This document shows positions 35,594-52,772 of a DNA stretch of 64,000 bases, in pieces. The position numbers and the translations under genes were made by a program. The DNA lies in assembly GCA_041671145.1 (NCBI GenBank), contig JBAZBZ010000007.1, positions 34,461-98,460 of the forward strand. The letters run 5' to 3'. Positions within the stretch are counted from its first letter, which is position 1. Each line of letters begins with the position of its first letter. The DNA is from Bacteroidales bacterium. Its GTDB lineage: Bacteria > Bacteroidota > Bacteroidia > Bacteroidales > JAHJDW01. The notes below the pieces were generated by a model. It was not told the origin of the DNA, ran no database searches, and was given only the letters and a program-made list of their open reading frames with translations.

Positions 35594-35643
35594 AAATAAT
35601 TGTATTTTTCATTAACGAAACATCAATGATTAAAAGCGTTTAA

Positions 35644-36309
35644 TTATGGCTGTTTTTCTGCTATAATTAAATCATTTGTCTCTTCTACTTTTTCAATCAC
35701 CTTAACTTTCAGTCCTTCCTCTAAAAAATTATTTTTAATTTTACTAAACAATTCATGTGTCATTGTTTCTTTCATTGTGTTATAAATAATTTTACCGTTA
35801 GGATTCAGATGAGTTGTCAAGCTATTAATAAATTTTATTTCAGTAAATATTTCGGGAATGGTATTAATTATAAAAATATCAATAATGATTAAGTCAAAAG
35901 TATCATTATTGTTTTTTAAATAATCTGATGCGTCGGAATGAATAATATTAATATTCTTAAACCTATTTATTTCAAATTCATTTATTGCTATTGAAATTAT
36001 TTCGGAATCAATGTCAACCAACTCAATAAAGGCACTAGAGTTAAAATCTTTTCTTATGGTTTGAACAATTGAACCTCCTCCTAATCCCAAAACTAATATC
36101 TTTTCAATGTTTTTACTGAATCCGATTTCAAGCAGTCCTTTGTGAAGAATTTTTTGCAGTGAACCATAAGAATAGTTGCTTTTATTAGTGTCTAAGGTTT
36201 TTTTTCCATTAATAAGATTTATCTCTAAGTTGCCATTTATTTTTGAAGTGTAACTTTTTAATCGAAATGGGATTATATAACTAAATGCTTTTTTTATATT
36301 CTTGTGCAT
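35644..36309 (-). CDS. Class I SAM-dependent methyltransferase / spermidine-synthase-like protein
   Basis: SAM motif ILVLGLGGGS followed by acidic-residue motifs (VDIDSEI, IIIDIF). Function is not assignable. Confidence 0.5.
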   Translation of the reverse strand: MHKNIKKAFSYIIPFRLKSYTSKINGNLEINLINGKKTLDTNKSNYSYGSLQKILHKGLLEIGFSKNIEKILVLGLGGGSIVQTIRKDFNSSAFIELVDIDSEIISIAINEFEINRFKNINIIHSDASDYLKNNNDTFDLIIIDIFIINTIPEIFTEIKFINSLTTHLNPNGKIIYNTMKETMTHELFSKIKNNFLEEGLKVKVIEKVEETNDLIIAEKQP

Positions 36310-36401
36310 AAAATGTGTTGTGTTGTTTTTATAATATTCAAAAGACGGAATATTTTTTTTATTAAATAAAGTAGAACAATATTTTTATATACTCAAAAGT
36401 A

Positions 36402-37439
36402 TTATACTTTTTTTAAAGTAAAAGCAAAAGTAGAACCAACGCCAACAGTGCTTCTTACGTTTATAATTTGTTTATGAGCTTCAATAATGTGTTTTACAAT
36501 TGCAAGTCCGAGTCCTGTTCCACCTTGTTCACGCGAGCGGCTTTTATCGGTTCTGTAAAATCGTTCAAAAATTCTTGATAAATTTTTTTCTTCAATACCA
36601 ATTCCATTGTCGGAAACTTCAACTAATATATTTTCATCCATATCAAAAAAACTGATTTTTGTTTGTCCATCGGTATTGCCATAAATAATAGAATTGTTTA
36701 TAAGATTGGTCAGAACCTGTTGAATTCTATCTCTATCAGCCAAAACCCTTATTGGTTTATCATGATTTTCGGCAATTTTTATTGTTATATTTTTGGCTTT
36801 TGCTTTTAATTCAAGTTCTTCAATCACTTCTCTGGCTAAATAAACCATATCGAATTCTTTTATTTCAAGTTTTATTTCACCCGATTCCAATCGCGAAATT
36901 ATATCCAAATCATTAACTATATTGATTAACCTTTCAATGTTTTTTTCTGTTCTTTCAAGATATTTCATGTTTATTTCAGGGTCATTCAAGCCGCCATCTA
37001 TCAATGTTGAAATATATCCCTGTATCGAAAATATTGGTGTTTTTAATTCATGTGAAATATTTCCTATAAACTCTTTTCTGAATTTTTCGAGTTTTTTTAA
37101 TTGTTCAATTTCATCTCCGCTTTTTTCAATCCATTCTTCCACATCTTTATTCACAATCTCAAAAATATCTTTCTCGGATTTTTCTTTTTTTTCAGTTTTA
37201 TTAAGTTTAAAATTATGAATGGTTTTGTAAATCAATTTTATTCTTTTGTTAACCAATTTCTCAAAAGTATAATCAAAAGCAATGAACGATACGCAAAATA
37301 CTGTTATGGAAATTATAAAAATAAAAGCCCAGTAAATTTCATCGAACAAAGCATAGTTTGCGAAAAAGCTGATAATACCTACTATTATGGAAATTATCAG
37401 ACACGTTATTACCGAAATATTTCTTGTAGAGTTATTCAT
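36402..37439 (-). CDS. phoR: Sensor histidine kinase, PhoR-like by operon context
   Basis: Two N-terminal TM helices, H-box SHELKTP, N box LTNLINNSIIY, and G boxes DNGIGI / GGTGLGLAI. Last gene of the pst-phoU-phoB operon. Confidence 0.7.
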   Translation of the reverse strand: MNNSTRNISVITCLIISIIVGIISFFANYALFDEIYWAFIFIISITVFCVSFIAFDYTFEKLVNKRIKLIYKTIHNFKLNKTEKKEKSEKDIFEIVNKDVEEWIEKSGDEIEQLKKLEKFRKEFIGNISHELKTPIFSIQGYISTLIDGGLNDPEINMKYLERTEKNIERLINIVNDLDIISRLESGEIKLEIKEFDMVYLAREVIEELELKAKAKNITIKIAENHDKPIRVLADRDRIQQVLTNLINNSIIYGNTDGQTKISFFDMDENILVEVSDNGIGIEEKNLSRIFERFYRTDKSRSREQGGTGLGLAIVKHIIEAHKQIINVRSTVGVGSTFAFTLKKV

Positions 37440-37489
37440 TCATTTTTAAGAATATACTCTGACAGGTTGAAAAAATCTGTCAGGTCAAG

Positions 37490-38161
37490 TTAAACCTCAA
37501 ACTTATATCCCACACCTTTAATAGTTTTAATAACATCATCACCGAGTTTTTCCCTTAATTTCCTGACATGAACATCAAGTGTTCTTTCGCCAACAATTGT
37601 GGAAGTGCCCCAAACTCTGTTCATTATTTCATCTCTTGTAAACAATCTGTTTGGTTTTGATGCAAGGAAAACAAGAAGTTCGAATTCTTTTTTTGGTAAT
37701 GAGATATTTTTATTTTTTTTAATAACAATATAATTTTCTTTATCAATTTTAATTTCGCCAAAATCGATGATATTTGTTTTGACTTCATCTGATGAAACCC
37801 TTTTGATTAAAGCTTTTATTTTACTTATCAAGATTCTGAGTTTTATGGGTTTTGTAATATAGTCATCTGCACCTGCGTCATAACCGGCAATCTGGGAATA
37901 ATCTTCTGAGCGTGCTGAAAGAAAAATTACCAGAATGTTTTTTAGAATATTTATTTGTTTAATTTCCCTGCATGTTTCAATACCATCCATTTCGGGCATC
38001 ATAACATCAAGAATTATTAAGTTGGGAATTATTTCTTTTGCAATTTGTATGGCATCTTTGCCGTTTGTGCATGTGTGAACTTCGAAGCCTTCTTTAATGA
38101 GATTATATTTAAGAAACTCTAAAATATCGGGTTCATCATCCACTATTAAAATTTTTTCCAT
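37490..38161 (-). CDS. phoB: OmpR/PhoB-family response regulator
   Basis: Receiver domain (DDEPDI...LDVMMPEMDG) and a winged-helix C-terminus (LDVHVRKLREKL...GVGYKF). Directly downstream of phoU. Confidence 0.75.
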   Translation of the reverse strand: MEKILIVDDEPDILEFLKYNLIKEGFEVHTCTNGKDAIQIAKEIIPNLIILDVMMPEMDGIETCREIKQINILKNILVIFLSARSEDYSQIAGYDAGADDYITKPIKLRILISKIKALIKRVSSDEVKTNIIDFGEIKIDKENYIVIKKNKNISLPKKEFELLVFLASKPNRLFTRDEIMNRVWGTSTIVGERTLDVHVRKLREKLGDDVIKTIKGVGYKFEV

Positions 38162-38181
38162 AAATAATTTATTATTTAATG

Positions 38182-38856
38182 TTAATCAATAATATTTTCA
38201 TGTTTAATAATCTTGCCGTCAATCCAGAAAACAACAGATTCGGCAATATTTACAGCATGGTCGGCAAGGCGTTCAATTTGTTGTAAAACAATTATTAAAT
38301 TTGTTGCAACAACAATAACTTCTGATTTTTTGGTCATTTCGTTAATTATTTTTGAATGCAACTTTTGATTCAAATCTTTTATAAAATCTTTATTTAGCAA
38401 CAATTCTTTAGCTTTAACAACATCTTTTTCAATGTAACTTAAAATTGCTTTTGAGAAAATTTCTTTTGAATGATTTGCTATTTCGTTAATTTTAAATTTA
38501 GTGATTATTTCGGGTTGTTCCCTTATACTTTCAGCTCTTTTAGCAATGCTTAATGCAATATCTGCAATGCGCTCAAGTTCATTGTCGATTTTAAGTGATG
38601 ACATTATTAAACGCAGGTCAGATGCTACGGGCTGAACAAGAGCGAATATTCTTTGACAAAGTTTATCAATTTTCACATCTATATCATCAATTTTATTTTC
38701 ATTTTCTTCAATTTGTTTAACCAAATCCTTATTGCCGGTTAACAATGCCGTTATTGATTTTTCAACCTGAATTTCCACAAGGTCCGACATTTCTATAATT
38801 CTTTTTCTCAGTTTCTCTAATTCTTGTTCGAAATGAGTTTGCATAAATGGAGTCAT
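38182..38856 (-). CDS. phoU: Phosphate signalling regulator PhoU
   Basis: Two PhoU repeats (DxxxDxxxxxI... E-x-x-x-D motifs: NELERIADIA, QIERLADHAVNIAE). Confidence 0.85.
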   Translation of the reverse strand: MTPFMQTHFEQELEKLRKRIIEMSDLVEIQVEKSITALLTGNKDLVKQIEENENKIDDIDVKIDKLCQRIFALVQPVASDLRLIMSSLKIDNELERIADIALSIAKRAESIREQPEIITKFKINEIANHSKEIFSKAILSYIEKDVVKAKELLLNKDFIKDLNQKLHSKIINEMTKKSEVIVVATNLIIVLQQIERLADHAVNIAESVVFWIDGKIIKHENIID

Positions 38857-38915
38857 ATATTTAAAGTTTTAAAATTACTAAATTTTTATAATTATTACAT
38901 TTATTAATTTTCAAA

Positions 38916-39674
38916 TTAACCAAATCTTCCTGTTATATAATCTTCTGTTTGTCTTTTCTCGGGGTTTGTAAATATTTTTTTAGTTTTATCGTATTCTATA
39001 AGTTCTCCAAGATAAAAGAAAGCCGTCCGGTTGCTCGTTCTTGCTGCCTGCTGCATATTATGAGTAACAATTACTATTGTATATTTTTCTTTTAATTGAA
39101 AAATTAATTCTTCTATTTTGCTTGTTGATATGGGGTCTAATGCACTTGCAGGTTCATCCATTAAAATAATTTCGGGATTAACGGCAAGAGCTCTGGCAAT
39201 GCAAAGTCGCTGTTGCTGTCCTCCCGATAAACCAAGTGCCGAATCATATAACCGGTCTTTTACTTCATCCCATATTGCTGCATTTTTTAATGATGTTTCA
39301 ACAATTTCATCAAGTTGTTTCTTGTCTTTTATACCGTTTATTCTCGGTCCATAAGCAATGTTATCGTAAGTAGATTTTGCAAAAGGATTGGATTTCTGAA
39401 AAACCATTCCGATTTTTTTTCTCAAATTAACAACATCAACATTTTGAGCGTAAATATTTGTTCCGTCAATTAATATTTCTCCTGTTATTTTTACATTATC
39501 AATCAAATCATTCATTCTGTTCAATGTCCTTAAGAATGTGGATTTGCCGCATCCAGAAGGACCAATCAAAGCAGTAACCCTGTTTTGAGGGATTTCAATA
39601 TTAATATTTTTCAACGCTTGCTTATCGCCGTAGTATAGTGAAAGATTATTTATTTTTATTTTTATTTCTGCCAT
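38916..39674 (-). CDS. pstB: Phosphate ABC transporter ATPase PstB
   Basis: [29 protein letters not shown], and the PstB-typical C-terminus YITGRFG. Confidence 0.9.
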
Positions 39675-39682
39675 GACTAAAC

Positions 39683-39836
39683 AAATTGTGAAATTGTGAA
39701 TTTGTGAAATTGTGAGTTAAGCATTTTTTATTTTTTAGTCTTTTGTTTTCAAATTGTCAAATTGTTAAATTGCTTAATCGTTGTTTTTATAATTTATTTT
39801 TGTTTGTGATTTTTAACAATTGAGCAATTTAACAAT
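39683..39836. repeat. Structured pstB-pstA spacer: 4 tandem 8-mers plus a 22-nt inverted repeat
   Basis: AAATTGTG / AAATTGTG / AATTTGTG / AAATTGTG at 39683-39714. ATTGTTAAATTGCTTAATCGTT (39761-39782) pairs with AACAATTGAGCAATTTAACAAT (39815-39836) at 20 of 22 positions. Confidence 0.7.
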
Positions 39837-39842
39837 ATAATT

Positions 39843-40739
39843 TTAAACTTTTTTTCTTCTTATTCTTGCTCTTATGATAACTGCCGTAAAGTTCAATGTA
39901 AAAGTCAATAATAATAAAACCATTGTTGTTGCATACTGAATAGGCATTGTTGCATCAACATTAGTTGATTGGGTTGACATGATGTAAATATGATAACCAA
40001 GATTCATAAACTGGTCGCTTAATGACGTTGGTAATGATGCAAGATAATAAGCCGCGCCTGTGAATAGAATGGGTGCAACTTCGCCTGCACCGCGACTTAC
40101 AGCAAGTATCGTTCCTGTCATAATTCCGGAAATAGAACCGGGAATTACAACTTTTATTATAGTTTGCCATTTTGTTGCACCAAGTGCTAAGCTTGCTTCC
40201 CGCATTTCTTTTGGCACTGCTCTCATTGCTTCTTCAACCGATACAATAACTACAGGCAATGTTAGCAAAGCCATGGTTAAACTTGCCCAGAGAATATTGG
40301 GTTGTGCCCATTTCAAAGTTCCGCCAAGAAAAATATTATCAATGTTTCCGCCAACAAATTTTATAAAAAATCCTAATCCGAATAACCCGAATATTATTGA
40401 AGGTACAACAGCAAGAGTTCTCACAGCAAAGCGAATTGTTTTTGAAATAACTGAATTCTCTTTTGCATATTCCGTTAAGTATATTGCAGTGATGGTTCCG
40501 AAAGGCACCGCAGCAATTGACATAACTATTACCATTAATGCTGTTCCGTAAATTGCCGGAAATATTCCTCCTTTTGTCATTCCGTCCGTAGGAAACTTTG
40601 TTAAAAATTCCCATGTGAAATTACTTCTCCCGTTATAAATAATTATCGAAATCATAATTACTATAATTGCAAGAATTAAAATCACAGAAAACCCTGTTAA
40701 GCCAATAATTATTCTACCTTTTAATTTATTTCTATTCAT
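39843..40739 (-). CDS. pstA: Phosphate ABC transporter permease PstA
   Basis: 6-TM permease with the EAA-type loop (EASLALGATKWQT). Confidence 0.85.
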   Translation of the reverse strand: MNRNKLKGRIIIGLTGFSVILILAIIVIMISIIIYNGRSNFTWEFLTKFPTDGMTKGGIFPAIYGTALMVIVMSIAAVPFGTITAIYLTEYAKENSVISKTIRFAVRTLAVVPSIIFGLFGLGFFIKFVGGNIDNIFLGGTLKWAQPNILWASLTMALLTLPVVIVSVEEAMRAVPKEMREASLALGATKWQTIIKVVIPGSISGIMTGTILAVSRGAGEVAPILFTGAAYYLASLPTSLSDQFMNLGYHIYIMSTQSTNVDATMPIQYATTMVLLLLTFTLNFTAVIIRARIRRKKV

Positions 40740-40756
40740 TATTTAGTTGTCAATAG

Positions 40757-40820
40757 TCATTGGTCATTAGTCATTAGTAAAACTTCGACATTCGATATTC
40801 AGTGTTCGATATTCGATATT
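40757..40820. repeat. Stuttering short-word repeats in the 240-bp pstA-pstC spacer
   Basis: GTCATTGGTCATTAGTCATTAG, then TTCGACATTCGATATTCAGTGTTCGATATTCGATATT. Confidence 0.6.
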
Positions 40821-40979
40821 ATTTATTTTATTTTTTTTCTTTTTCTCTGCGCCTTAGCGTCTTTGCAAAAAACTTTTTTATTTTCAAATTAATTTGTGAA
40901 CTTGCGAAAACAACGAACCACAAACGACAAACTACTAACTATTTTCATTATTCACTATTAATTATTATTTATTATTTTT

Positions 40980-42173
40980 TTAACTCTTCCCTTGAATTCT
41001 TTTTACCAATTTTCCTTTCACGTAAAATTCAGCTATTGCATTTAGAGTAAAAGTAAATATGAATAATAAAGAGCCGATTAAAAACAAAACATTATAATGA
41101 GTGTCGCCAAAAACGACTTCAGCCATTTCCGCACCTATTGTTGCCGATAATGTTCTTACCGAGTCGAATGGGTTTAATGAAATCATTGCTGCATTTCCTG
41201 TTGCCATCAGAACTATCATTGTTTCACCAAAAACTCTGCCTGTTCCTAAAAGTATTGCGGCAAATATACCGGGTGTTGCAGCAGGAAGAGTGACAAAGAA
41301 AGCAGTTTGCCAGCTTGAAGCTCCTAAAGCTAAACTTGCTTCCGTGTATGTTTTGGGAATAGCAGTTAAAGCATCTTCAGTAATAGTGTAAATTATAGGA
41401 ATAGCAGCTAAAGCCATTGCTATCCCGCCTACAAAAGCATTTAATCGTGTTTCATAACCAAATACATTTTGAAAAAAAGATGCTAATACCATTAATGCGA
41501 AAAAGCCTACTACTACTGAAGGAAATCCGGCAAGAAGTTCAACAGCAGGTTTAATTATTTCCTTCATTCTTTTTGAAGCAAAATTCGATGTGAATAACGC
41601 CGCAAGAATTGCAACCGGAGCTGCAAACAACATTGCAATTATTGTTATTTTAAATGTTCCCAGAAACAAAGGCAATAATCCGTATTTGGGGTCGTCAGAA
41701 ACAGGTTGCCATATTCTGCCTGTTAAATTTCTGAATGATGCTCTGTCTTCAGGTGTTTCTTTTCTTTCTTCTTCTTTGATTTTATTATTATCTGTGACGG
41801 CTCCATATTGTTCCTGTCCGTTTGAATTTGTTGGAGTTTCTTTTTTTGTTTCAACTCCATAAGTTTCTTGTCCGTTAGAGTTAACATTTTCTGTTTTAGA
41901 ATTTGTTGAAATGATTTTTTCTGTCTTTGCTTTTTTTGTTTTGTAAAATATGGGAAGTGATTCTCTGAATACGAATACGAAAATTAAAATTATTATTGTT
42001 ATTGATAAAAAGGCAATCAGAGTAATCAGCTTTTCTGCCAAAAACTCCGAAAGCCTGAATTTCTTTTTTAATGATTCGGAAGTAAAACCCTTTTGCGGAG
42101 AATAGTCCAATGTATTCTCATCCTTCGGTTTTAATTCCTCGTCATCATTATTTATGTTTTCAAAATAATTCAT
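40980..42173 (-). CDS. pstC: Phosphate ABC transporter permease PstC with an extended low-complexity loop after TM1
   Basis: EAA-type loop EASLALGASSWQT. About 70 extra residues after the first TM contain a duplicated NSNGQE(T/Q)YG unit. Confidence 0.85.
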   Translation of the reverse strand: MNYFENINNDDEELKPKDENTLDYSPQKGFTSESLKKKFRLSEFLAEKLITLIAFLSITIIILIFVFVFRESLPIFYKTKKAKTEKIISTNSKTENVNSNGQETYGVETKKETPTNSNGQEQYGAVTDNNKIKEEERKETPEDRASFRNLTGRIWQPVSDDPKYGLLPLFLGTFKITIIAMLFAAPVAILAALFTSNFASKRMKEIIKPAVELLAGFPSVVVGFFALMVLASFFQNVFGYETRLNAFVGGIAMALAAIPIIYTITEDALTAIPKTYTEASLALGASSWQTAFFVTLPAATPGIFAAILLGTGRVFGETMIVLMATGNAAMISLNPFDSVRTLSATIGAEMAEVVFGDTHYNVLFLIGSLLFIFTFTLNAIAEFYVKGKLVKRIQGKS

Positions 42174-42181
42174 TTTGCATT

Positions 42182-42311
42182 CAAGTACTTCGAGTACTTA
42201 AAGTTTTCGAAACATTTATATTTATATTATTTTTTTTAATTACTCTAAGTTTTTAAGAAAATCCATCATTTTTTTTTTTACTTTAAGTACTTTAGGCACT
42301 CGAAGTACTTG
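42182..42311. repeat. Long-range inverted repeat spanning the pstS-pstC spacer
   Basis: CAAGTACTTCGAGTACTTAAAG (42182-42203) is the reverse complement of CTTTAAGTACT...CGAAGTACTTG (42281-42311), apart from a 9-nt insertion (TTAGGCACT) in the right arm. Confidence 0.65.
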
Positions 42312-42321
42312 AAATACTTTT

Positions 42322-43155
42322 TTACTTAACCGGAAAGTAGCCAACTTCAACAACTAATTTCTGGCCTTCAGGACCTAAAATCCAGTCAATATATTTCTTT
42401 ATTTCACCGGTTGGTCTGTTTTTTAAATACATGTATAAATACCTTGAAATAGGGTAAACATTGGATTTGATGTTTTCGGCAGTTGGCAAATATGCTGTAC
42501 TTTTATCATCTTTTTTTACTTTGCAATCTTTAACACCTTCAGCATAAGCAGCGCCACCATAGCCAATTCCGTATTTGTCTTTTTTTACTGCATTCACAAC
42601 AGCAGCAGTTCCGGGAAGCGTTTGGCAGCTTGCAGCATAATCAGCTTTTACAACATTGTCTTTAAAATAAACATAAGTACCAGAGCTGTTTTCACGACCA
42701 TATAATTTTATTGCAGCATCGGGTCCGCCAATTTCTTTCCAGTTTTTTATTTTGCCGGTATAAATTCCACTTAATTGTTTTATTGATAATTCGGTTACCG
42801 GATTTGAATTATTTATGAAAATTGTTATTCCGTCTTTTGCACAAGCAATTTCCACTCCCATTGAATTATAGCGTTCTTTTAGTTTATCAATTTCCGATTG
42901 TTTCATCTGACGGCTTGCATTTGCAATGTCAGTTGAACCATTAATTAATGCAGCAATTCCTGTTCCTGAACCGCCACCTGTAACCTGAATTTCAACATTA
43001 GGATTTGATTTCATGTAAACTTCAGCCCATCTTTGAGCAAGAATTACCAATGTGTCCGAACCTTTTACTGTTATTTTTTGCTTAACCATAAAAGCTGTTG
43101 CAATTGTAAACACTACTCCCAGTGCAATTGCTGTTATTATATTTCTTTTTTTCAT
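42322..43155 (-). CDS. pstS: Phosphate-binding lipoprotein/periplasmic protein PstS
   Basis: Signal peptide. GSDTL...GGGSGTG...ANASR motifs of the PBP-like_2 phosphate-binding fold. Confidence 0.85.
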   Translation of the reverse strand: MKKRNIITAIALGVVFTIATAFMVKQKITVKGSDTLVILAQRWAEVYMKSNPNVEIQVTGGGSGTGIAALINGSTDIANASRQMKQSEIDKLKERYNSMGVEIACAKDGITIFINNSNPVTELSIKQLSGIYTGKIKNWKEIGGPDAAIKLYGRENSSGTYVYFKDNVVKADYAASCQTLPGTAAVVNAVKKDKYGIGYGGAAYAEGVKDCKVKKDDKSTAYLPTAENIKSNVYPISRYLYMYLKNRPTGEIKKYIDWILGPEGQKLVVEVGYFPVK

Positions 43156-43213
43156 ATTTTTTTTTATTTTTATTGATTAATTTTTTTTATTAGTGAATCT
43201 GTGGCATGTTTTT

Positions 43214-44815
43214 TTAAAATTTAGCTTGTACTCTTACAGAAAGCATATTGTCTTTTACATCTTTCCCTAAATTGCTGACAACAGTTGCTGTCGATGTTTT
43301 GAAAGCAGCATTATTGCTTTTTTCATTTTGTGGCATATCATATTGAAGAGTTATTCTTATGTTGTCATTAAAGTAATACTGCCATGCAAGAGCTATAGTA
43401 CTTATAGCGATATCACTTGAAGTATTTACGCCATCACCTTTAACTTTAGTATTTGGGTCATAAACATCATATCTTAAAACAAACTGATTTTTCTTACCAA
43501 TGTTTTTAATAAAATACACATAGAATCCTGAAAATTGCCTGATTTTGAAAGGAGAGATAGTTGTTTTAGCTGTTCCGTTTAAGTATGTAGTTGGGTTTGT
43601 AGAATTTTTTGTAGATGTAACAGTATTCACAGTTATTGCACCATCTGAACCAATCGTTGTTGAGCTTTTTCCGGTTAATGTATCTATTTTATATGTTGTA
43701 GATGCTGTAGTTGTTGAGCCGCTAACAATGTTTTGTCCTGCAATAAATTCACCTTTTATAGCTAAACCGCCAAGTATATCAAGATATATTCTCATTTCAC
43801 CGCCAAACCATTGTTTTTTTAAGCAAGCACCGGGTGTTTTCGTACTATCAATTGAATATTTATCTGTTGCAACAGAAGCAGGGGAATCAAATCTTTTAAC
43901 TGAAGTATAATTTGAATTTTGAATATATAGTTTATAGTTTGAACCAATTAAACCTGTATTAATATCAGAATTTACATTTCCAAAATAGCCGTGAGTACCA
44001 ATATCAATACCCAACCAACTTATTGATTTAAGTTTAATTGTATAATAAGCGCGAGCCATAACATCTTTTTGCGGGTCATTATCCACTGCATCAATAGTTG
44101 CTTTGTTAGTTGAAGTTCTTGTAAAAGCGTTTGCAAAGTTGCCATTTAGTAAAGCAAGTTGAACATGAAGAGGAATTTTTGGCGAGTTGTATTCTATTTT
44201 TGTGCCAATTTCTCTTTCGCCCGGATATAGTTTTTGAATTACCATTGAGCGTTCTAATACTTCTCTTGAGCTGGAAGAATATTCAACTTCATAATTTGGT
44301 CTGTTAAACTGACCAGCCCATAAGGCAAGACCTTTACAGAATTTAAAGTTAGCAAGTGCATAAGCATCTTTTAATGCTAACCCACCTGTACTTAAATCGG
44401 GTTGAAGAACAAATGCTATTCCATCAGCTGGCTCATAAGTAAATTTTATTCTGGCTCTACGAAGGAAGAATGTATTATTGTTGCTCAATCCGTATTGAGG
44501 AAACGCACCGGTTAATGTTGTTGCTCCACCATTCTGTGCTTGAAATTGTCCGAATGTCAAAAGTGCACCTTGATATCCTTTTCCGCTGGTTGTGTAATCA
44601 TAGCCCTCTCTGTGTTGCCATTGTGCCTGAATGTAGCCAGATATTTTGATTTTGGCAAGTTTGAATAAATCGGCTTCATCTGTTGAAAGCCGCTCATCGA
44701 GAGCATTTAGTTTTGCATTGTGTTCGTCAATTTTTTCTTTTAATGTATCTAAATTGACTTGCGAAAATCCGCTCAGTGATATCGCCATTAATGTTGAAAT
44801 TAAAATTCTTTTCAT
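43214..44815 (-). CDS. Outer-membrane porin, phosphate-selective porin O/P-like, first gene of the Pho operon
   Basis: Signal peptide, N-terminal coiled coil (LDTLKEKIDEHNAKLNALDERL), then alternating beta-strand pattern ending in ...SVRVQAKF. Position immediately upstream of pstS. Confidence 0.55.
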   Translation of the reverse strand: MKRILISTLMAISLSGFSQVNLDTLKEKIDEHNAKLNALDERLSTDEADLFKLAKIKISGYIQAQWQHREGYDYTTSGKGYQGALLTFGQFQAQNGGATTLTGAFPQYGLSNNNTFFLRRARIKFTYEPADGIAFVLQPDLSTGGLALKDAYALANFKFCKGLALWAGQFNRPNYEVEYSSSSREVLERSMVIQKLYPGEREIGTKIEYNSPKIPLHVQLALLNGNFANAFTRTSTNKATIDAVDNDPQKDVMARAYYTIKLKSISWLGIDIGTHGYFGNVNSDINTGLIGSNYKLYIQNSNYTSVKRFDSPASVATDKYSIDSTKTPGACLKKQWFGGEMRIYLDILGGLAIKGEFIAGQNIVSGSTTTASTTYKIDTLTGKSSTTIGSDGAITVNTVTSTKNSTNPTTYLNGTAKTTISPFKIRQFSGFYVYFIKNIGKKNQFVLRYDVYDPNTKVKGDGVNTSSDIAISTIALAWQYYFNDNIRITLQYDMPQNEKSNNAAFKTSTATVVSNLGKDVKDNMLSVRVQAKF

Positions 44816-44857
44816 GTTTTAATTTTTTTGTTAATAATTCATTGTTGTTTAACAATA

Positions 44858-44935
44858 CAAAAGTCAAGGGTTAATATTTCGTAAACATTAAGAAAAGGTT
44901 AATTGTTGAATAATTTTACGTTAATTGAATGTTAA
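44858..44935 (-). promoter_or_regulatory. Pho-box-like promoter module A (variant -7 box plus phased TTAAC repeats)
   Basis: CAAAAGTC (minus strand GACTTTTG) at 44858-44865. (G/A)TTAA pentamers start at 44870, 44887, 44898, 44920 and 44931, i.e. offsets 12, 29, 40, 62 and 73. Lies 43 nt upstream of the porin ATG. Confidence 0.5.
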
Positions 44936-45060
44936 GAGAATTTTGAAATGCATTTATTAGCAAGAGTTTTGAAGCAAGAATAAAAAAATAAAGAGTTGTT
45001 AATATTGAATAGCCAATACTTTTCAATTACTATAAAAAATATATTTTAACCAAATATAAA

Positions 45061-45156
45061 TTATCTACTAAAAAAGAAAATTACAGTTAGAAAAACAAAA
45101 TATAATATCCAATATATTTTTGTTTTCATTAATTCAATTAATAAATAAGGTTTCAT
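45061..45156 (-). CDS. Possible 31-aa hydrophobic peptide downstream of promoter module B
   Basis: ATG at 45156, TAA at 45061-45063; MKPYLLIELMKTKIYWILYFVFLTVIFFFSR. Too short for the ORF track and no homology evidence. Confidence 0.2.
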   Translation of the reverse strand: MKPYLLIELMKTKIYWILYFVFLTVIFFFSR

Positions 45157-45183
45157 GATTTTTAATTTTAAAATTTCATATTG

Positions 45184-45261
45184 CAAAAGTCAGATATTAA
45201 TGTTTTATAAACATTAAGGGGAAGTTAATTGTTGTATAATATTAAGTTAAGTTAATATTAA
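45184..45261 (-). promoter_or_regulatory. Pho-box-like promoter module B (colinear duplicate of module A)
   Basis: CAAAAGTC at 45184-45191. (G/A)TTAA pentamers start at 45196, 45213, 45224, 45246 and 45257, the same offsets (12, 29, 40, 62, 73) as in module A. Confidence 0.45.
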
Positions 45262-45391
45262 ATGGTACTTCTAAAAAGTATTCACTAATTTGCATTATTC
45301 GCAATTATAAACTGATATTTTTATACTTGTCTGAAATGGATAAGCAGCTTAATTTTTTGTACAATAATCATTGAAGCTTAAGCAGCAGATA

Positions 45392-46789
45392 TTATTTGAT
45401 AAAGTATTTAAATAATAAAAACAGTCCTCCTGAAAGTGTAACAGTAACCGGAATGGTAATAAGCCAAGTGAGTAAAATATTTTTTACGGTTTTTGATTGA
45501 AGATTTTTCAGACCGCCTTCATAAACCATGCTTCCTGCAACACCGGATGATAGAACATGCGTGGTACTTACAGGTAGTCCCAAAAGAGTAGATAATTGAA
45601 TTGTGCTTGCAGCAACAATTTCAGCACTTGCACCCTGAGCATAATTCAAATGCGTTTTACCGATTTTTTCACCGATGGTAACAACAATTCTTTTCCATCC
45701 GAACATTGTACCTAAACCCAGCGAAATGGAAACCATCAATATAGCCCACAATGGAGCAAATTCGGTATATGCTTTTAATTCTTTAATATTTGATTTTAAT
45801 TTGTGAATTTCTTTTTCATCAAGATTGCTCTTGCAGGTTGTTATTGTCGGGGTTAAACTTGCCAAACTTAAAATATTTTTTCTTAATTCAAAACTGTATT
45901 TTTTCGTGTCAACATCGGGAGTTTGAATGATATTTAAAATCTTTTTAATTGCTCCAATGTTCACTTGTGCTTTGTAAACAGCAATTGTGTCTTTCGGTAG
46001 CATTTTTTTCTTGTTGGCTTTATTCAGATACCATTCTATATCATTTACACTGCCAATCATATTAGCCGGATTTTTTGTGGAATTTAAAGCAAATTGAGTG
46101 GGCAAAATGCTTATTAAAATTATCATAATAAGACCAATTCCTTTTTGTCCGTCGTTGGAGCCATGAGAATAACTAACGCTTGTACATGTAAGAACTAATA
46201 TTCCTCTTATCCAGAAAGGTGGCTTTTTGTGTTCATCGGCTGAATGGAAAAATTTCTTTTTTCTTATTATTTTATGAAAAATATACATAAGAAAAATTGT
46301 TATCATAAATCCAATCATTGGAGATACAAGTAATGACAAACCGGCATCAATTATTTTATTCCAGTTTAGCTCAACTGGGGTTGGCGAGGTGATAATGAAT
46401 GCAATTCCAACTCCGAAAATTGAACCAAGCAATGTGTGAGAGCTTGAACAGGGTATGCCCAAATACCACGTTCCGAAATTCCATATTACAGCAGTTAAAA
46501 TGAGTGATGAAACCATTGCTATGTTATTATAAACATTCTGGTCAACCAATGCTTGTAATGGCAAGAGATTAATAATACCCATAGCAACAGCAAGTCCTCC
46601 AAAATAAACACCGAGAAAATTCCATACACCCGACCAGATTACTGCTGTTCGTGGTTTTAATGATTTTGTGTAAATAACGGTTGCAACTGCATTTGCGGTA
46701 TCATGAAAACCGTTAATGAATTCGAATATACATGCTGCTAATAAACATGCGATTAACAGAAGTGCTAAACCTAAATCTAATCCAAACAT
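45392..46789 (-). CDS. pit: PiT-family (PHO4) inorganic phosphate transporter, paralogue 1
   Basis: GFHDTANAVATVIY and SHGSNDGQKGIG signatures. 465 aa. Confidence 0.85.
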   Translation of the reverse strand: MFGLDLGLALLLIACLLAACIFEFINGFHDTANAVATVIYTKSLKPRTAVIWSGVWNFLGVYFGGLAVAMGIINLLPLQALVDQNVYNNIAMVSSLILTAVIWNFGTWYLGIPCSSSHTLLGSIFGVGIAFIITSPTPVELNWNKIIDAGLSLLVSPMIGFMITIFLMYIFHKIIRKKKFFHSADEHKKPPFWIRGILVLTCTSVSYSHGSNDGQKGIGLIMIILISILPTQFALNSTKNPANMIGSVNDIEWYLNKANKKKMLPKDTIAVYKAQVNIGAIKKILNIIQTPDVDTKKYSFELRKNILSLASLTPTITTCKSNLDEKEIHKLKSNIKELKAYTEFAPLWAILMVSISLGLGTMFGWKRIVVTIGEKIGKTHLNYAQGASAEIVAASTIQLSTLLGLPVSTTHVLSSGVAGSMVYEGGLKNLQSKTVKNILLTWLITIPVTVTLSGGLFLLFKYFIK

Positions 46790-46808
46790 ATTTTTTTTTA
46801 ATTTGTTA

Positions 46809-46886
46809 CAAATATTTAAATTTAAGGTTAACTGGATTTTAAGTTAAGTTTAATGGGAAGTTAATTCTATGTTAAATTAATGTTAA
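46809..46886 (-). promoter_or_regulatory. Pho-box-like array upstream of PiT paralogue 1 (shared divergent spacer with the glycosyltransferase gene)
   Basis: Degenerate -7-like CAAATATTTA at 46809-46818. (G/T)TTAA pentamers sit at offsets 18, 29, 40, 51, 62 and 73 from it (GTTAA at 46827, 46860, 46871, 46882; TTTAA at 46838 and 46849), a strict 11-bp phase. Confidence 0.45.
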
Positions 46887-47117
46887 TAATTTAGCCATGA
46901 TTTAAATACTTACTTTATCTGACAGTTTTTTTCAGTCTGACAGAGTATAATAATAATTTTTTTAAAAATTGTTAAATTGATAAATTGATAGATTGTTAAG
47001 AATAGTATTGCTATACGAAAAGGTTAAAACAACAATTAAACAATGTAACCATTTAAAGTATTATTGTAAATAAAAAAAGTTTAAATTAGCATTTAATAAG
47101 TAAGAAATTCAAAAAAA

Positions 47118-48206
47118 ATGAAGTTCGTATTTTTTGTTCAGGGTGAGGGAAGAGGGCACATGACACAAGCGTTGTCACTCAAAACAATAATTGAAAAACG
47201 CGGACATACTCTCGAAAAAGTTTTTGTCGGTATAAGTAGCTCAAGAAAAATTCCCGATTATTTTGTTAATAAAATAGAAGCGGAAATCATTCAAATAAAG
47301 AGTCCGAATTTTATAAGCGATAAAAAACGCAAATCAATTAAAATTTTTCCTTCGATTATATTCAACTTATTTAAAATGCCCGATTTCATTGGCAGTATGA
47401 ATTTAATAAATAAGGAAATTAAAAAAATAAAGCCTGATGTGATTATTAATTTTTATGAACCGCTTTTCGGTTTGTGTAATTGGTTTTATGGCAATAAAAT
47501 TCCTGTTGTTTGCATCGCTCATCAATATATATATCATCATAAAGATTTTGTTTTTCCGGAAAGATTTGAAACCGAAAAGAAAATGTTGAAAGTATTTGCA
47601 TCTCTGACTGCATTGAGAGCGAAAAAGAAACTTGCACTTTCTTTCTATCCTTTAAAAAATAAGAATGATAAATTAATTGTAATTCCACCGTTTTTGAGAG
47701 AAGAGGTTTTGAATTTAAAAATTTCAAAAGAAGATTTTTTGCTTGTTTACCTTTTAAATGAGGGTTATGTTGAGGATATAATAAAATGGCATGATAAAAA
47801 TAAAAATATAAAATTGCATTGCTTTTCCGATTGGAAAGAAATTAAAAATGATGAGTTTGTTTATGATGAAACGCTGTGTTTTCACAAATTAAATGATGTT
47901 AAACTTCTTGATTTGCTCAGTCGTTGCAAAGGACTTGTAACCACTGCCGGCTTCGACATTATTTGCGAAACAATGTATTTGGGAAAACCGGCTTTTATGG
48001 TTCCGGTAGAAAACCAATTTGAGCAATTCTGCAATTCCATTGATGCGCACAGAGCAAATGCAGGCATTTGCGATAACAAATTTGATATATCAAAATTTAT
48101 TAAATTTATCAATTCATATAAAAATAATAATTCCGAATACCGCCAATGGGTGGAGGGTTCAATTGATATTGTTATGAGAGAAATTGAATCGGTATTTACA
48201 GATTAA
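47118..48206 (+). CDS. GT-B glycosyltransferase of the MJ1255/MGDG-synthase-like (GT28-like) type
   Basis: N-terminal FFVQGEGRGHMTQALSL and C-terminal LVTTAGFDIICETMYLGKP motifs are typical of this family. Confidence 0.65.
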   Translation: MKFVFFVQGEGRGHMTQALSLKTIIEKRGHTLEKVFVGISSSRKIPDYFVNKIEAEIIQIKSPNFISDKKRKSIKIFPSIIFNLFKMPDFIGSMNLINKEIKKIKPDVIINFYEPLFGLCNWFYGNKIPVVCIAHQYIYHHKDFVFPERFETEKKMLKVFASLTALRAKKKLALSFYPLKNKNDKLIVIPPFLREEVLNLKISKEDFLLVYLLNEGYVEDIIKWHDKNKNIKLHCFSDWKEIKNDEFVYDETLCFHKLNDVKLLDLLSRCKGLVTTAGFDIICETMYLGKPAFMVPVENQFEQFCNSIDAHRANAGICDNKFDISKFIKFINSYKNNNSEYRQWVEGSIDIVMREIESVFTD

Positions 48207-48226
48207 AGTTTTTAGCAATAAAAACT

Positions 48227-48234
48227 TATCTTTG
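48227..48234 (+). promoter_or_regulatory. -7 promoter box (TATCTTTG)
   Basis: Lies 24 nt upstream of the ATG at 48258. Confidence 0.4.
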
Positions 48235-48257
48235 CAAAAAAAAAATCAGAAAATAAA

Positions 48258-49142
48258 ATGGAGCAGTTCAAAAAAGCGTTATTTGTATTAAATCCGGTAT
48301 CTGTTGGAAAAAGAAATAAAAATATTTCAGAAAAAATAAAATCAATTATCGGAGAAAAAATAAATCATAAAATAATTATTTGGGAAAACGCAAAGCATGA
48401 TATCGGAAGCATTGTGAAAGCCGAAATGAATAAAGAAAATTATGACTTGATTGTTGCTGTTGGTGGCGATGGAACTGCAAATGAAATAGCATCGGTACTC
48501 ACAAACACAAATGTTACATTTGCATTAATACCATCGGGTTCGGGAAATGGTCTTGCCCGCCATCTTAAAATTCCAATGAAGCCGGATGATGCTTTACATC
48601 TCCTGTTAAATGGAAAGGTGAAAAATATTGATACATGTTATATAAATGAGCATCCGTTTTTTTGTACGAGCGGTATAGGTTTTGATGCACATATTGGAAA
48701 ATTATTTGTCAATAGTGTTGAACGCGGTTTCAATAGTTATCTTAAAATCGTCATTAATGAAGTTTTTAATTATAAACCTAAATTGTATGAATTGGAAATT
48801 GATGGTAATAAAATTTCCGTAAAAGCTTTTCTAATTACTTTTGCAAATGCAAATCAATATGGCAATAATGCTGTAATTGCTCCTGAAGCCGATATTCAGG
48901 ATGGAATTATTGAGGTTACAGTTATAAAACCGTTTAATGTTTTTCAGGCAATTATAATGGCAGTGCGATTGTTTGCCCGCAATATTAATAAGTCCTGCTG
49001 TGTTGAAACGTATAAAGCAAAAAATATTAAATTATTTTCTGTAGAAAACAATGTAATTCATTTTGATGGCGAACAGGGCGAAATATCAGGAAATTTAGAA
49101 TTAAAAAATCACAAACAAAGTTTAAGGGTTTTGGTAAAATGA
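48258..49142 (+). CDS. Diacylglycerol/lipid kinase family protein (YegS/DAGK catalytic domain)
   Basis: NPVSVGKR..., VAVGGDGTANE and PSGSGNGLA motifs. Confidence 0.8.
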   Translation: MEQFKKALFVLNPVSVGKRNKNISEKIKSIIGEKINHKIIIWENAKHDIGSIVKAEMNKENYDLIVAVGGDGTANEIASVLTNTNVTFALIPSGSGNGLARHLKIPMKPDDALHLLLNGKVKNIDTCYINEHPFFCTSGIGFDAHIGKLFVNSVERGFNSYLKIVINEVFNYKPKLYELEIDGNKISVKAFLITFANANQYGNNAVIAPEADIQDGIIEVTVIKPFNVFQAIIMAVRLFARNINKSCCVETYKAKNIKLFSVENNVIHFDGEQGEISGNLELKNHKQSLRVLVK

Positions 49143-49193: not shown

Positions 49194-50591
49194 CTATCTT
49201 GCAAAACTTCTAAACAATAAAAACAATCCGCCGGAAAGAAGGATTGTTACGGGAATTGTAATTATCCATGTAAGAATAATGTTTGTAATTGTTTTTCTCT
49301 GTAAATTTTTAATGCCTCCTTCATAAACCATGCTTCCTGCAACGCCGGAAGACAAAACGTGAGTAGTGCTTACAGGTAATCCTAAAAATGAAGAGAATCC
49401 TATTGTGCATGCGGCTACTATTCCTGAGCTGGCACCCTGTGCATAATTCATGTTAGTTCTTCCTATTTTTTCTCCTATAGTTACTACTATTCTTTTCCAT
49501 CCGAACATTGTTCCAAGTCCGAGAGAAAGCGAAACTAAAAGAATTACCCACCATGGAGCAAACTCGGTGTATGACTTAAGCTCTTTTATATTTAATTTAA
49601 GTTTGTATAATTCATCTTTATTAAGATTAGTTTTGCAAGTTGTTAATCCGGGAGTTAAACTTTCCAGATTTAAAATGTTTTTTCGTAATTCGAAATTGTA
49701 TTTTTTTGAATCAACATCAGGATTTTGCAGATTATTCAAAATATTTTTTATTGTGGCAATGTTCATTTGCGCTTTAAAAACAGCAATAGTATCTTTTGGC
49801 AGCATTTTGTTTTTATCGGTTTTGTTAAGGAACCACTCAATAGCATTTGCGCTACCAATCATGTTTGATGGATTTTTGGAAGGGTTTATTGCAAATCGTG
49901 CCGGTAAAAAGCATATTAAAATTATCATAAACAAACCTATTCCTTTTTGTCCATCGTTTGAGCCATGTGAATAGCTGACGCTCGTACAGGTGAGAACCAG
50001 AAGTCCTCTTATCCAGAACGGAGGTTTTTTATGCTCCTCGGGTGTGTGAAAGAATTTCTTTTTTTTAATTATTTTTTTTAAAAAAAACATTAATATAATT
50101 GTTACTCCAAATCCAATTATCGGTGAAACGAGCAAAGAAAGTCCGGCATCAATTACTTTATTCCAGTTCGGTTCTACAGAATTTGAAGTAGTAATCATAA
50201 AGGCAATTCCTACCCCAAAAATTGAACCAATTAATGTGTGTGAACTTGAACAAGGTATTCCGAGATACCACGTGCTAAAATTCCATATTACAGCTGTTAA
50301 TATGAGTGATAATATCATTGAAACGCTGTGATAAATATTCTGGTCAACCAATGCCTGTAGTGGTAAAAGGTTAATAATTCCCATTGCAACAGCAATACCT
50401 CCGAGATAAACACCAAGAAAATTCCATATACCCGACCATATCACTGCGGCATGTGGTTTTAATGACTTTGTATAAATAACTGTTGCAACAGCATTTGCCG
50501 TATCATGAAATCCATTGATGAATTCAAACGTGCAGGCAGCAAGTAAGCAAACGAACAGCAGAATAAATAAACCTAAATCCAATCCTAACAT
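49194..50591 (-). CDS. pit: PiT-family inorganic phosphate transporter, paralogue 2
   Basis: Same 465-aa length and gap-free colinearity with paralogue 1. Most positions are identical by eye. Confidence 0.85.
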   Translation of the reverse strand: MLGLDLGLFILLFVCLLAACTFEFINGFHDTANAVATVIYTKSLKPHAAVIWSGIWNFLGVYLGGIAVAMGIINLLPLQALVDQNIYHSVSMILSLILTAVIWNFSTWYLGIPCSSSHTLIGSIFGVGIAFMITTSNSVEPNWNKVIDAGLSLLVSPIIGFGVTIILMFFLKKIIKKKKFFHTPEEHKKPPFWIRGLLVLTCTSVSYSHGSNDGQKGIGLFMIILICFLPARFAINPSKNPSNMIGSANAIEWFLNKTDKNKMLPKDTIAVFKAQMNIATIKNILNNLQNPDVDSKKYNFELRKNILNLESLTPGLTTCKTNLNKDELYKLKLNIKELKSYTEFAPWWVILLVSLSLGLGTMFGWKRIVVTIGEKIGRTNMNYAQGASSGIVAACTIGFSSFLGLPVSTTHVLSSGVAGSMVYEGGIKNLQRKTITNIILTWIITIPVTILLSGGLFLLFRSFAR

Positions 50592-50832
50592 AATATCAAT
50601 TTTTTGTTAAAATTATATTAAAACCAATTCAACACAAAAAATTTGTCAAAAAAAATACTTGATTGTTAATAAAAAAAACAGAAGAGTAATAATATAAGTT
50701 ATTCGTTAAAAATGTTTGTGGTTTGTCATTAATTCGGTTTTTCTCGTAGCTCTTGACTCATAGCTCGTAGCTATTGTTAAAGGTTTATTAATAGGTGGGG
50801 ATAAAGAGTATCATTATTAAAAAGCAAAGTAC

Positions 50833-52370: not shown

Positions 52371-52772
52371 TTATTCCAAATCCGTCATCACAAGCTTACC
52401 ATGCTTAATTCCCTTTGTTCCTATTATTCTTTCTGACAAATTAATCAAATCTTTTGATTTTCCTTTAACAGCAATAGTTTCGAGGCATAAGTCATGAGCA
52501 ATATGGACATGTTGGGTTGAGAGAATCAAATCATGAAAATCGTGCTGGATGTGCATTAAAATATTATTTAGTTCTCTTTTGTGGTGGTCGTAAACAATAA
52601 CAATTGCACCGGCAACTGCCTTGTTATTATCCCACTTTTCTTTTACATTATTGTTCTTAATAAGATTACGGATTGCCTGCGAACGATTGGGAAACTTGTT
52701 TTGCTTAACAAGTGCATCGAGCGATTGCAAAATGCTTTTTTCGAGTGAAACTCCAAATCGTTTTATTTGCAT
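52371..52772 (-). CDS. nikR: Nickel-responsive transcriptional regulator NikR
   Basis: Ribbon-helix-helix N-terminus (RFGVSLEKSILQSLDALV...NRSQAIRNLI) and a C-terminal ACT-like domain with His residues (VYDHHKRE...HIQHDFH...HVH). Confidence 0.8.
   Translation of the reverse strand: MQIKRFGVSLEKSILQSLDALVKQNKFPNRSQAIRNLIKNNNVKEKWDNNKAVAGAIVIVYDHHKRELNNILMHIQHDFHDLILSTQHVHIAHDLCLETIAVKGKSKDLINLSERIIGTKGIKHGKLVMTDLE

Follow-up and report, generated by a model that had tools for sequence, protein, structure and literature searches.

What reads the repeated TTAAC-like words that stand in front of phosphate genes in an uncultured Bacteroidales bacterium? The window analysed here, a 64-kb stretch of its DNA with a G+C content of 32%, contains three intergenic arrays of TTAA-containing units spaced 11 bp apart. 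An earlier reading of the letters alone (hereafter the sequence-only reading) had placed these arrays before a cluster of porin, pst, phoU, response regulator and histidine kinase genes and before a PHO4/PitA-family gene (PiT paralogue 1), and had called them candidate Pho boxes. The gene context is borne out by Pfam and NCBIfam matches (Table 1). Our analysis shows that the phasing is non-random, that the element is conserved across the phylum and associated with phosphate genes, and that it keeps a fixed helical register to the core promoter. On this sequence evidence, the arrays are probably Pho boxes of the PhoB type. The searchable literature was not found to describe such a consensus or positional rule for the phylum; the type of switch, a PhoB protein acting on a Pho box, is known.

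Architecture of the arrays

Each array is read on the coding (minus) strand as a series of 11-nt units 5′ of a −7-like box. The anchor sequence CAAAAGTC occurs at 44858 and 45184 and nowhere else in the window, and its degenerate form CAAATATTTA occurs at 46809, with one further copy at 25645. Relative to these anchors, NTTAA words fall at offsets 12/29/40/62/73 in modules 1 and 2 and 18/29/40/51/62/73 in module 3. Anchors and offsets alike are exactly those given by the sequence-only reading, which had also placed all of the sites on one helical face. This holds for offsets 18, 29, 40, 51, 62 and 73, which share a common 11-bp lattice, but not for offset 12, which sits 6 bp off and on the opposite face. 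Out-of-phase TTAA copies at 45241 and 45251 (module 2) and at 46816, 46822, 46844 and 46877 (module 3) had been omitted.

Modules 1 and 2 are identical at 66 of 91 positions, without gaps, over the array and the −7 box, and identity drops to background beyond. The count of three promoters is thereby reduced to two independent ones, those of modules 1 and 3; module 2 is a paralogous copy without a long gene of its own. The sole open reading frame (ORF) between module 2 and module 1 is a small hydrophobic one (Table 1). Module 2 is most likely a second, distal promoter of the porin–pst cluster, and expression of a small Pho-regulated peptide is a possible alternative role. The protein collection contains no close porin relatives in which conservation of module 2 could be followed, the best being 46% identical. 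An Rfam search of 44700–47200 with E values up to 1 gave no match, and so no known RNA element accounts for module 2 or the long intergenic region. The empty slot between the two pairs of units is conserved between modules 1 and 2 (TTATTCAACAA and TTATACAACAA) and resembles ATTATTGCAACAATTAC of distant porin promoters; porin promoters may thus carry a second, interleaved register of repeats.

Phasing within the window

TTAA occurs 773 times in the window. Phasing was scored at every window position as the number of TTAA copies in six slots 11 bp apart. Four or more slots are filled only at 44877/44888, 45203/45214 and 46806–46850, with all six filled at 46828. Nothing reaches four of six at the other periods (5–10 and 12–17) except for a single 4/6 at period 6. 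The AT-rich intergenic regions themselves, 44816–45391 (20% G+C) and 46790–47117 (18% G+C), were then shuffled 5000 times with dinucleotides preserved. The shuffles rarely reach the observed maximum (P = 0.0036 and P < 0.0002, respectively), and AT-richness is therefore not the explanation; AT-matched shuffled sequence, the control that the sequence-only reading had named for its own claim, does not show the same phasing.

Conservation upstream of PiT orthologues

We collected 80 loci with PiT orthologues (48–84% identical) from species-representative genomes, nearly all of them Bacteroidota, from many orders and with G+C contents of 27–54%. Upstream statistics refer to the 78 Bacteroidota loci, and the related-locus sequence scanned amounts to 1.76 Mb (both strands). 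In an unbiased enumeration of all 5-mers as direct repeats, with periods of 5–24 in the 200 bp 5′ of the PiT gene, TAACA and TTAAC come out on top, both at period 11 and in 22 and 20 loci, respectively; no other candidate exceeds 9. The pattern TTAAY-N6-TTAAY is present on the gene strand within 250 bp 5′ of PiT in 32 of the 78 loci. Its density there is 58 times that in the rest of the same loci, rising to 148 times for the TTAAC version, and a spacing control singles out only 11 bp (32 loci) and 22 bp (11 loci).

Iterative refinement on the PiT upstream regions, with the window left out, yielded a 24-nt matrix of 19.7 bits with the consensus cTTAACAaTTnCtTAACATtGg. The letters TTAACA are retained in genomes of 27–54% G+C, as in CTTAACACAACCTTAACATGCC of locus L055. 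In the closest relative, L001, whose PiT is 84% identical, the module 3 array is orthologous unit by unit. There the box-bearing PiT gene is directly followed by the response regulator gene (92% identical product) and then by the kinase gene, a gene order that suggests autoregulation of the regulator.

The outside-trained matrix returns to the same places in the window. Its top scores on both strands are 19.1 bits at 46864–46887, 13.4 bits at 44880–44903, 12–13 bits at 44869–44893 and 11.9 bits at 45239–45262. The 19.1-bit match in 46790–47117 has P = 0.0003 against the intergenic shuffles, and 44816–45391 holds four matches of at least 11 bits where 0.03 are expected (P of the maximum = 0.009). 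A match at 60480–60503 (11.3 bits) was rejected, as it lies inside a 680-aa ORF and 1.4 such matches are expected per window. A matrix trained elsewhere gives independent confirmation that all three modules represent a conserved element. The sequence-only reading had also noted a single 11-bp-spaced pair at 50606 and 50617, 5′ of PiT paralogue 2. The pair is present, but the best dimer there scores 6.4 bits, which is not significant and at chance level; PiT paralogue 2 would lie outside the regulon or weakly in it.

Register to the core promoter

The sigma-A promoter of Bacteroidota consists of a −33 TTTG and a −7 TAnnTTTG, a consensus that reportedly goes back to the work of Bayley et al. in 2000 (cited in PMC3547664). 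For the 69 strong sites (at least 16 bits) in loci L001–L080, we located the TTTG of a TAnnTTTG box with at most one mismatch and determined how far it lies from the initial T of the second unit. These distances pile up at 19, 30, 41 and 52 nt, that is, in helical-turn steps of 11. In the window, the proximal paired unit (44891, 45217 and 46842) is exactly 30 nt from TTTG in each module. The strongest distal dimers are in register at 63 nt, the distance of unit 46875 in module 3. The −7-like boxes (GACTTTTG, twice, and AATATTTG) each have one mismatch to TAnnTTTG and lie 42, 26 and 19 nt 5′ of start codons for modules 1, 2 and 3, respectively.

A TTTG about 17–23 nt 5′ of the −7 box is absent in modules 1–3, and its slot is taken by the proximal unit (TTAATGTTTAC, TTAAAATCCAG). 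The second unit of the phylum-wide consensus closes with ATTGG, which may supply a TTG. The layout fits activator-dependent promoters in which a putative activator sits over the upstream promoter element.

Genes carrying the motif elsewhere

The 1.76 Mb of loci contain 69 matches of at least 16 bits, 45 of them upstream of the bait PiT gene and 24 elsewhere. None of the latter falls inside a long ORF, and most have a co-oriented gene about 50–300 bp downstream. Eight of the 24 are upstream of OprO/P porin (Porin_O_P) genes, in seven loci, and three further matches stand 5′ of a DUF47/PhoU_div gene, a second PiT gene and a lipoprotein gene.

As a context-free test, public metagenomes were scanned for the 18-mer TTAACAATTNCTTAACAT, which gave 129 sites in 120 stretches, and the 66 downstream ORFs of at least 90 aa were counted by Pfam family. 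Phosphate-acquisition families account for 18 of the 66: Porin_O_P (5), PHO4 (4), PstS-type PBP_like_2 (4), Na_Pi_cotrans (2), polyphosphate kinase (PPK; 1), phosphonate-binding protein (1) and PhoU_div (1). As the share of such families in a genome is far below 1%, this is enrichment at the level of a regulon. The sequence-only reading had predicted enrichment upstream of Pho-type genes, and it is seen across genomes (the 78 PiT loci and the metagenome sites) rather than within this genome. OmpR-type regulators (Response_reg) account for 6 of the 66, and 5 of these also match Trans_reg_C. Those of L104, L106, L127, L132, L154 and L193 are about 35% identical to the window regulator and are preceded by TTAACAATTCCTTAACATTTATGCTATAACATTA, which suggests that a different lineage, richer in G+C, also has a TTAAC-type box, apparently with autoregulation.

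Six porin–pst loci of other Bacteroidales (L318–L323) were chosen by protein similarity alone. The PHO4 upstream regions in these loci carry TGTAACAAAAACGTAACA (15.1 bits in L318). In the porin-promoter block, TGTAACAtaATTGcAACAATTACTTAATcc, the core has drifted to GTAACA and GCAACA, and a TTAAC-based matrix under-scores such sites. Given this variation, the first core base is T or G by clade and TTAAC is a lineage flavour, in agreement with the description of the boxes as those of one lineage.

The encoded regulator and a model of activation

The response regulator encoded at 37490–38161 has a receiver domain and an OmpR-type winged-helix domain. Its best regulator families are PhoB models, TIGR02154 (220 bits, cut-off 296) and NF053854 for Bacteroides PhoB (204 bits, cut-off 270); with scores below the cut-offs, it is filed as PhoB-like by context and not as a certified equivalog. 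That context is the one expected of PhoB, namely pstSCAB–phoU and a PhoR-like kinase. The closest solved structure is that of RegX3, the mycobacterial phosphate regulator. Against E. coli PhoB, the regulator is about 35% identical and its recognition helix is near-identical (ERTLDVHVRKLREKL versus DRTVDVHIRRLRKAL).

We propose the following model, in which three points are inferred: which protein binds, that it activates rather than represses, and how far the operon extends. The arrays would be tandem head-to-tail sites for the phosphorylated form of this PhoB-type regulator. Each 11-nt unit, with TTAAC(A) as its core or the weaker forms TTAAT and TTAAA, would bind a single winged-helix domain, and a dimer would occupy a 22-bp box of two adjacent units. 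The unit nearest the promoter would cover the −33 region, which has no good TTTG in these promoters. Bound PhoB would replace the −33 contact and recruit the RNA polymerase holoenzyme, much as E. coli PhoB acts as an activator over the upstream element at promoters without a −35 (PMC1906773, PMC9306846). Further units on the same face upstream (2+2 in modules 1 and 2; six in module 3) would add cooperative occupancy. Phosphate limitation would switch on the OprO/P porin, pstSCAB–phoU and PiT paralogue 1, and phoB–phoR would be autoregulated if the cluster is one transcript.

Phage promoters with the dimer

About 25 of the 129 metagenome sites, as judged by eye, belong to a stereotyped phage promoter, (a/g)atTTAACAATTTCTTAACATTAaAAgTTTGG-N19-TAtaTTAGTActGTAA, also written TTAACAATTTCTTAACATTAaAAgTTTGG-N19-TAtaTTAGTActGTAA. 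In it the dimer is copied perfectly, a −33 TTTG of the Bacteroidota type comes next, and the −7-like box stands 41 nt (30 + 11) away from the second unit. The 41-nt class comprises 45–46 metagenome sites, and those beyond the phage promoters belong to chromosomal phosphate genes. The promoter recurs within contigs, with three sites in L199 and two each in L103, L164 and L185 (among L081–L200; also in L201–L280). The genes behind it match PHROG families for a DNA-polymerase exonuclease subunit, an endonuclease, a deoxyribonucleotidase and a CobS-like ATPase. The extended 29-nt pattern, in which 27 bases are specified, occurs in 116 stretches of IMG/VR; several of these lie in viral contigs of 167–266 kb, one being IMGVR_UViG_3300002092_001784 (266 kb). 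Cultured phages gave nothing close, the best protein match being 42% identical. A marginal BLAST match of the phage promoter to Riemerella phage RAP44 was rejected, as it is a plain −33/−7 promoter without the dimer.

These phages may use host PhoB, a phage-encoded factor or some other exploitation of the sequence. In a wider proposal, the entire phylum Bacteroidota would have a (T/G)TAACA-N5 repeat as its Pho box, set at quantised distances from the −7 box, and large uncultured marine phages would use host PhoB through it. We put this forward tentatively and regard it as rather doubtful. If true, host phosphate starvation would drive part of the phage transcription programme, which goes well beyond the single pstS and phoA auxiliary genes of cyanophages.

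Weighing alternative explanations

Several observations weigh against reading the arrays as Pho boxes of the encoded regulator. In this organism, the motif appears linked to the regulator by context only, and both regulator and kinase score below the curated PhoB/PhoR equivalog cut-offs. Being paralogous, modules 1 and 2 count as one piece of evidence, not two, and several units of modules 3 and 2 score under 3 to 4.3 bits with a single-unit matrix, with the TTAA core retained. Upstream of the six porin orthologues, the PiT-trained matrix reaches only −1.6 to 9.8 bits; the porin block common to L318–L323, TGTAACAtaATTGcAACAATTACTTAAT, is 11-bp phased, and its core drifts, so TTAAC is not universal. 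The dimer before many promoters of large uncultured phages needs a special explanation if it is a Pho box. Finally, with gaps of 148–241 bp among the pst genes, transcription may not run unbroken from the porin to phoR.

The reliance on neighbourhood, the sub-cut-off scores and the drift of the core between clades all favour sites for a phosphate-related regulator other than the encoded PhoB, either another OmpR-family protein or a repressor released under starvation. We nevertheless consider this improbable. Direct repeats of 11 bp are the signature of tandem binding by OmpR/PhoB-family winged-helix proteins, and the regulon content is the classical Pho set. In the window the regulator gene is part of the pst–phoU cluster, and in L001 it comes straight after the PiT gene that bears the box; in B. 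fragilis, PhoB is the regulator demonstrated to bind pst and to control it (PMC3547664). For a repressor in particular, a site over the −33 region of promoters without a −33 element fits activation instead.

Slightly less probable again is a feature that is independent of any dedicated protein or is read by RNA polymerase itself, such as phased A/T-rich curvature or an UP-like element. The repeats are helix-phased and A/T-rich, and the main argument for this explanation comes from the phages, in which the dimer stands directly 5′ of a complete −33/−7 promoter at many promoters without a link to phosphate genes. It is opposed by the retention of the exact letters TTAACA at 27–54% G+C, by the confinement of the motif to phosphate-gene promoters within the loci and by its absence from every other promoter of the 64-kb window. 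Chance in intergenic DNA of 18–20% G+C, where TTAA is common, is scarcely credible given the shuffles (P = 0.004 and < 0.0002), a signal at period 11 only, the agreement of an independently trained matrix on the same places and the conservation of the arrays in relatives.

Comparison with known Pho boxes

At the level of sequence, the arrays show every feature expected of a Pho box: 11-bp direct repeats, a fixed promoter register and an association with phosphate genes across genomes. The closest described element is the SphR Pho box of Synechocystis PCC 6803, with at least three tandem CTTAACCT octamers and 3-bp linkers, which stands upstream of the pst, sphX and phoA genes (PMC1906773). The resemblance to known Pho boxes that had been pointed out from the letters extends to this element, with its TTAAC core, 11-bp period and multiplicity of direct repeats. 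The cyanobacterial box belongs to another phylum and its core is followed by CT, whereas the unit here is cTTAACAaTTn, with an A after the core. It is phased to −35/−10 and the predicted box here to the Bacteroidota −33/−7.

The E. coli Pho box is 22 bp long, has two 11-bp direct repeats, replaces the −35 and is bound by a head-to-tail winged-helix dimer; multiple boxes are possible (PMC9306846, PMC4415409). The tandem architecture is the same, and the regulators are related at the roughly 35% identity given above. The core, however, is CTGTCAT in E. coli (PMC4415409) and TTAACA here. The core promoter type also differs.

In B. subtilis, PhoP boxes are TT(A/T/C)ACA repeats with a period of about 11 bp, typically four repeats (two dimers), at sigma-A −10 promoters. 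TTAACA is an allowed core, and four repeats match the 2+2 layout of modules 1 and 2. The Firmicute system has other flanks, and the likeness may be convergent.

Within the phylum, pstC induction under low phosphate requires B. fragilis PhoB (BF1576), which also shifts a 512-bp fragment of the pst promoter in electrophoretic mobility shift assays; that study does not define the sequence of the box (PMC3547664). The regulator here falls under the cut-off of the Bacteroides PhoB model, as given above. A phosphate-depletion study of F. johnsoniae lists the regulon and gives no motif (PMC8115612). No Bacteroidota Pho-box sequence was found defined in the searchable literature, a search that left subscription journals and databases such as RegPrecise outside.

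Significance

Bacteroidota have a major part in the turnover of phosphorus in gut, soil, rhizosphere and sea. Measured starvation regulons are available for F. johnsoniae and B. fragilis, and the searchable literature was not found to state the recognition sequence of PhoB in the phylum. The consensus cTTAACAaTTnCtTAACATtGg (with GTAACA variants in some Bacteroidales), together with the positional rule relative to the −7 box, would allow Pho regulons to be predicted from genomes and metagenome-assembled genomes. It would also give an account of activator-dependent promoters in a phylum whose sigma factor and promoter are unusual, and offer a phosphate-responsive promoter part for Bacteroides engineering. 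For the window itself, the outcome is a confident functional annotation of two intergenic regions as a familiar kind of switch, which will not surprise a specialist.

Gene context of the arrays

The features of the region are collected in Table 1. An NCBI entry, 'MAG: porin [Bacteroidales bacterium]', matches the porin protein with full identity. The gaps between pst genes are unusually long (148–241 bp): pstA–pstB at 39675–39842, pstC–pstA at 40740–40979 and pstS–pstC at 42174–42321. They contain no terminator-like or Pho-box-like sites. A terminator scan of 35500–44900 and 44700–47200 found none in intergenic gaps and a few intragenic matches, at chance rate. A sigma-70 promoter scan is uninformative in Bacteroidota.

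Table 1 Features of the arrays and their surroundings. Coordinates of units are minus-strand starts; each unit is 11 nt long and read on the coding (minus) strand.
Feature	Position	Strand	Sequence	Description
CobW/HypB-like gene	33335-34240	+		flanks the region, unrelated to the arrays
Histidine kinase	36402-37439	-		presumed PhoR; PnpS/PhoR among best families
OmpR/PhoB-family response regulator	37490-38161	-		presumed PhoB
phoU	38182-38856	-		Pfam and NCBIfam
pstB	38916-39674	-		Pfam and NCBIfam
pstA	39843-40739	-		Pfam and NCBIfam
pstC	40980-42173	-		Pfam and NCBIfam; 397 aa, long for PstC
pstS	42322-43155	-		Pfam and NCBIfam
Phosphate-selective porin (OprO/P family)	43214-44815	-		Porin_O_P (Pfam); ATG 44815; first gene 3′ of module 1
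Module 1 array	44881-44935	-		5′ of porin-pst cluster; 2+2 units
Module 1 unit	start 44935	-	TTAACATTCAA	TTAAC, 9.8 bits
Module 1 unit	start 44924	-	TTAACGTAAAA	TTAAC, 6.1 bits
Module 1 empty slot	44913	-	TTATTCAACAA	without TTAA
Module 1 unit	start 44902	-	TTAACCTTTTC	TTAAC, 8.9 bits
Module 1 unit	start 44891	-	TTAATGTTTAC	TTAAT, 8.0 bits
Module 1 off-lattice unit	start 44874 (plus-strand site 44870)	-	TTAACCCTTGA	TTAAC; overlaps −7-like box
Module 1 −7-like box	44865-44858	-	GACTTTTG	
Small hydrophobic ORF	45061-45186	-	MKPYLLIELMKTKIYWILYFVFLTVIFFFSR	41 codons from TTG or 31 from ATG 45157; candidate coding
Module 2 array	45207-45261	-		paralogous copy of module 1, 326 bp upstream of module 1
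Module 2 unit	start 45261	-	TTAATATTAAC	
Module 2 unit	start 45250	-	TTAACTTAATA	
Module 2 empty slot	45239	-	TTATACAACAA	without TTAA
Module 2 unit	start 45228	-	TTAACTTCCCC	
Module 2 unit	start 45217	-	TTAATGTTTAT	
Module 2 off-lattice TTAAT	start 45200 (plus-strand site 45196)	-		
Module 2 −7-like box	45191-45184	-	GACTTTTG	
PiT paralogue 1 (PHO4/PitA family)	45392-46789	-		Pfam and NCBIfam; ATG 46789; 3′ of module 3
Module 3 array	46821-46886	-		5′ of PiT paralogue 1; six consecutive units
Module 3 unit	start 46886	-		TTAAC
Module 3 unit	start 46875	-		TTAAC
Module 3 unit	start 46864	-		TTAAC
Module 3 unit	start 46853	-		TTAAA
Module 3 unit	start 46842	-		TTAAA
Module 3 unit	start 46831	-		TTAAC
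Module 3 −7-like box	46816-46809	-	AATATTTG	PiT1 promoter
Family-1 glycosyltransferase (Glyco_trans_1_3) and DAG-kinase/YegS-like lipid kinase	47118-49142	+		divergent from PiT1; pair kept in L001
PiT paralogue 2 (PHO4/PitA family)	49194-50591	-		NCBIfam
NikR-like gene	52371-52772	-		flanks the region, unrelated to the arrays

The glycosyltransferase and lipid kinase genes are reminiscent of the lipid-remodelling genes of phosphate starvation; they are not counted as regulon members, the best dimer in their orientation scoring below 0 bits. A CTGTCAG-N11-CTGTCAG pair at about 46918–46945 (minus strand), with an E. coli-like Pho core, was set aside, as its period is 18 bp and the orthologous L001 region lacks the segment. 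Four tandem 8-bp repeats, AACAATCT ATCAATTT ATCAATTT AACAATTT, lie at 46966–46999 (minus strand), about 80–110 bp 5′ of the module 3 array, and are kept in L001 (about 1664–1700) between the PiT gene and the divergent glycosyltransferase gene.

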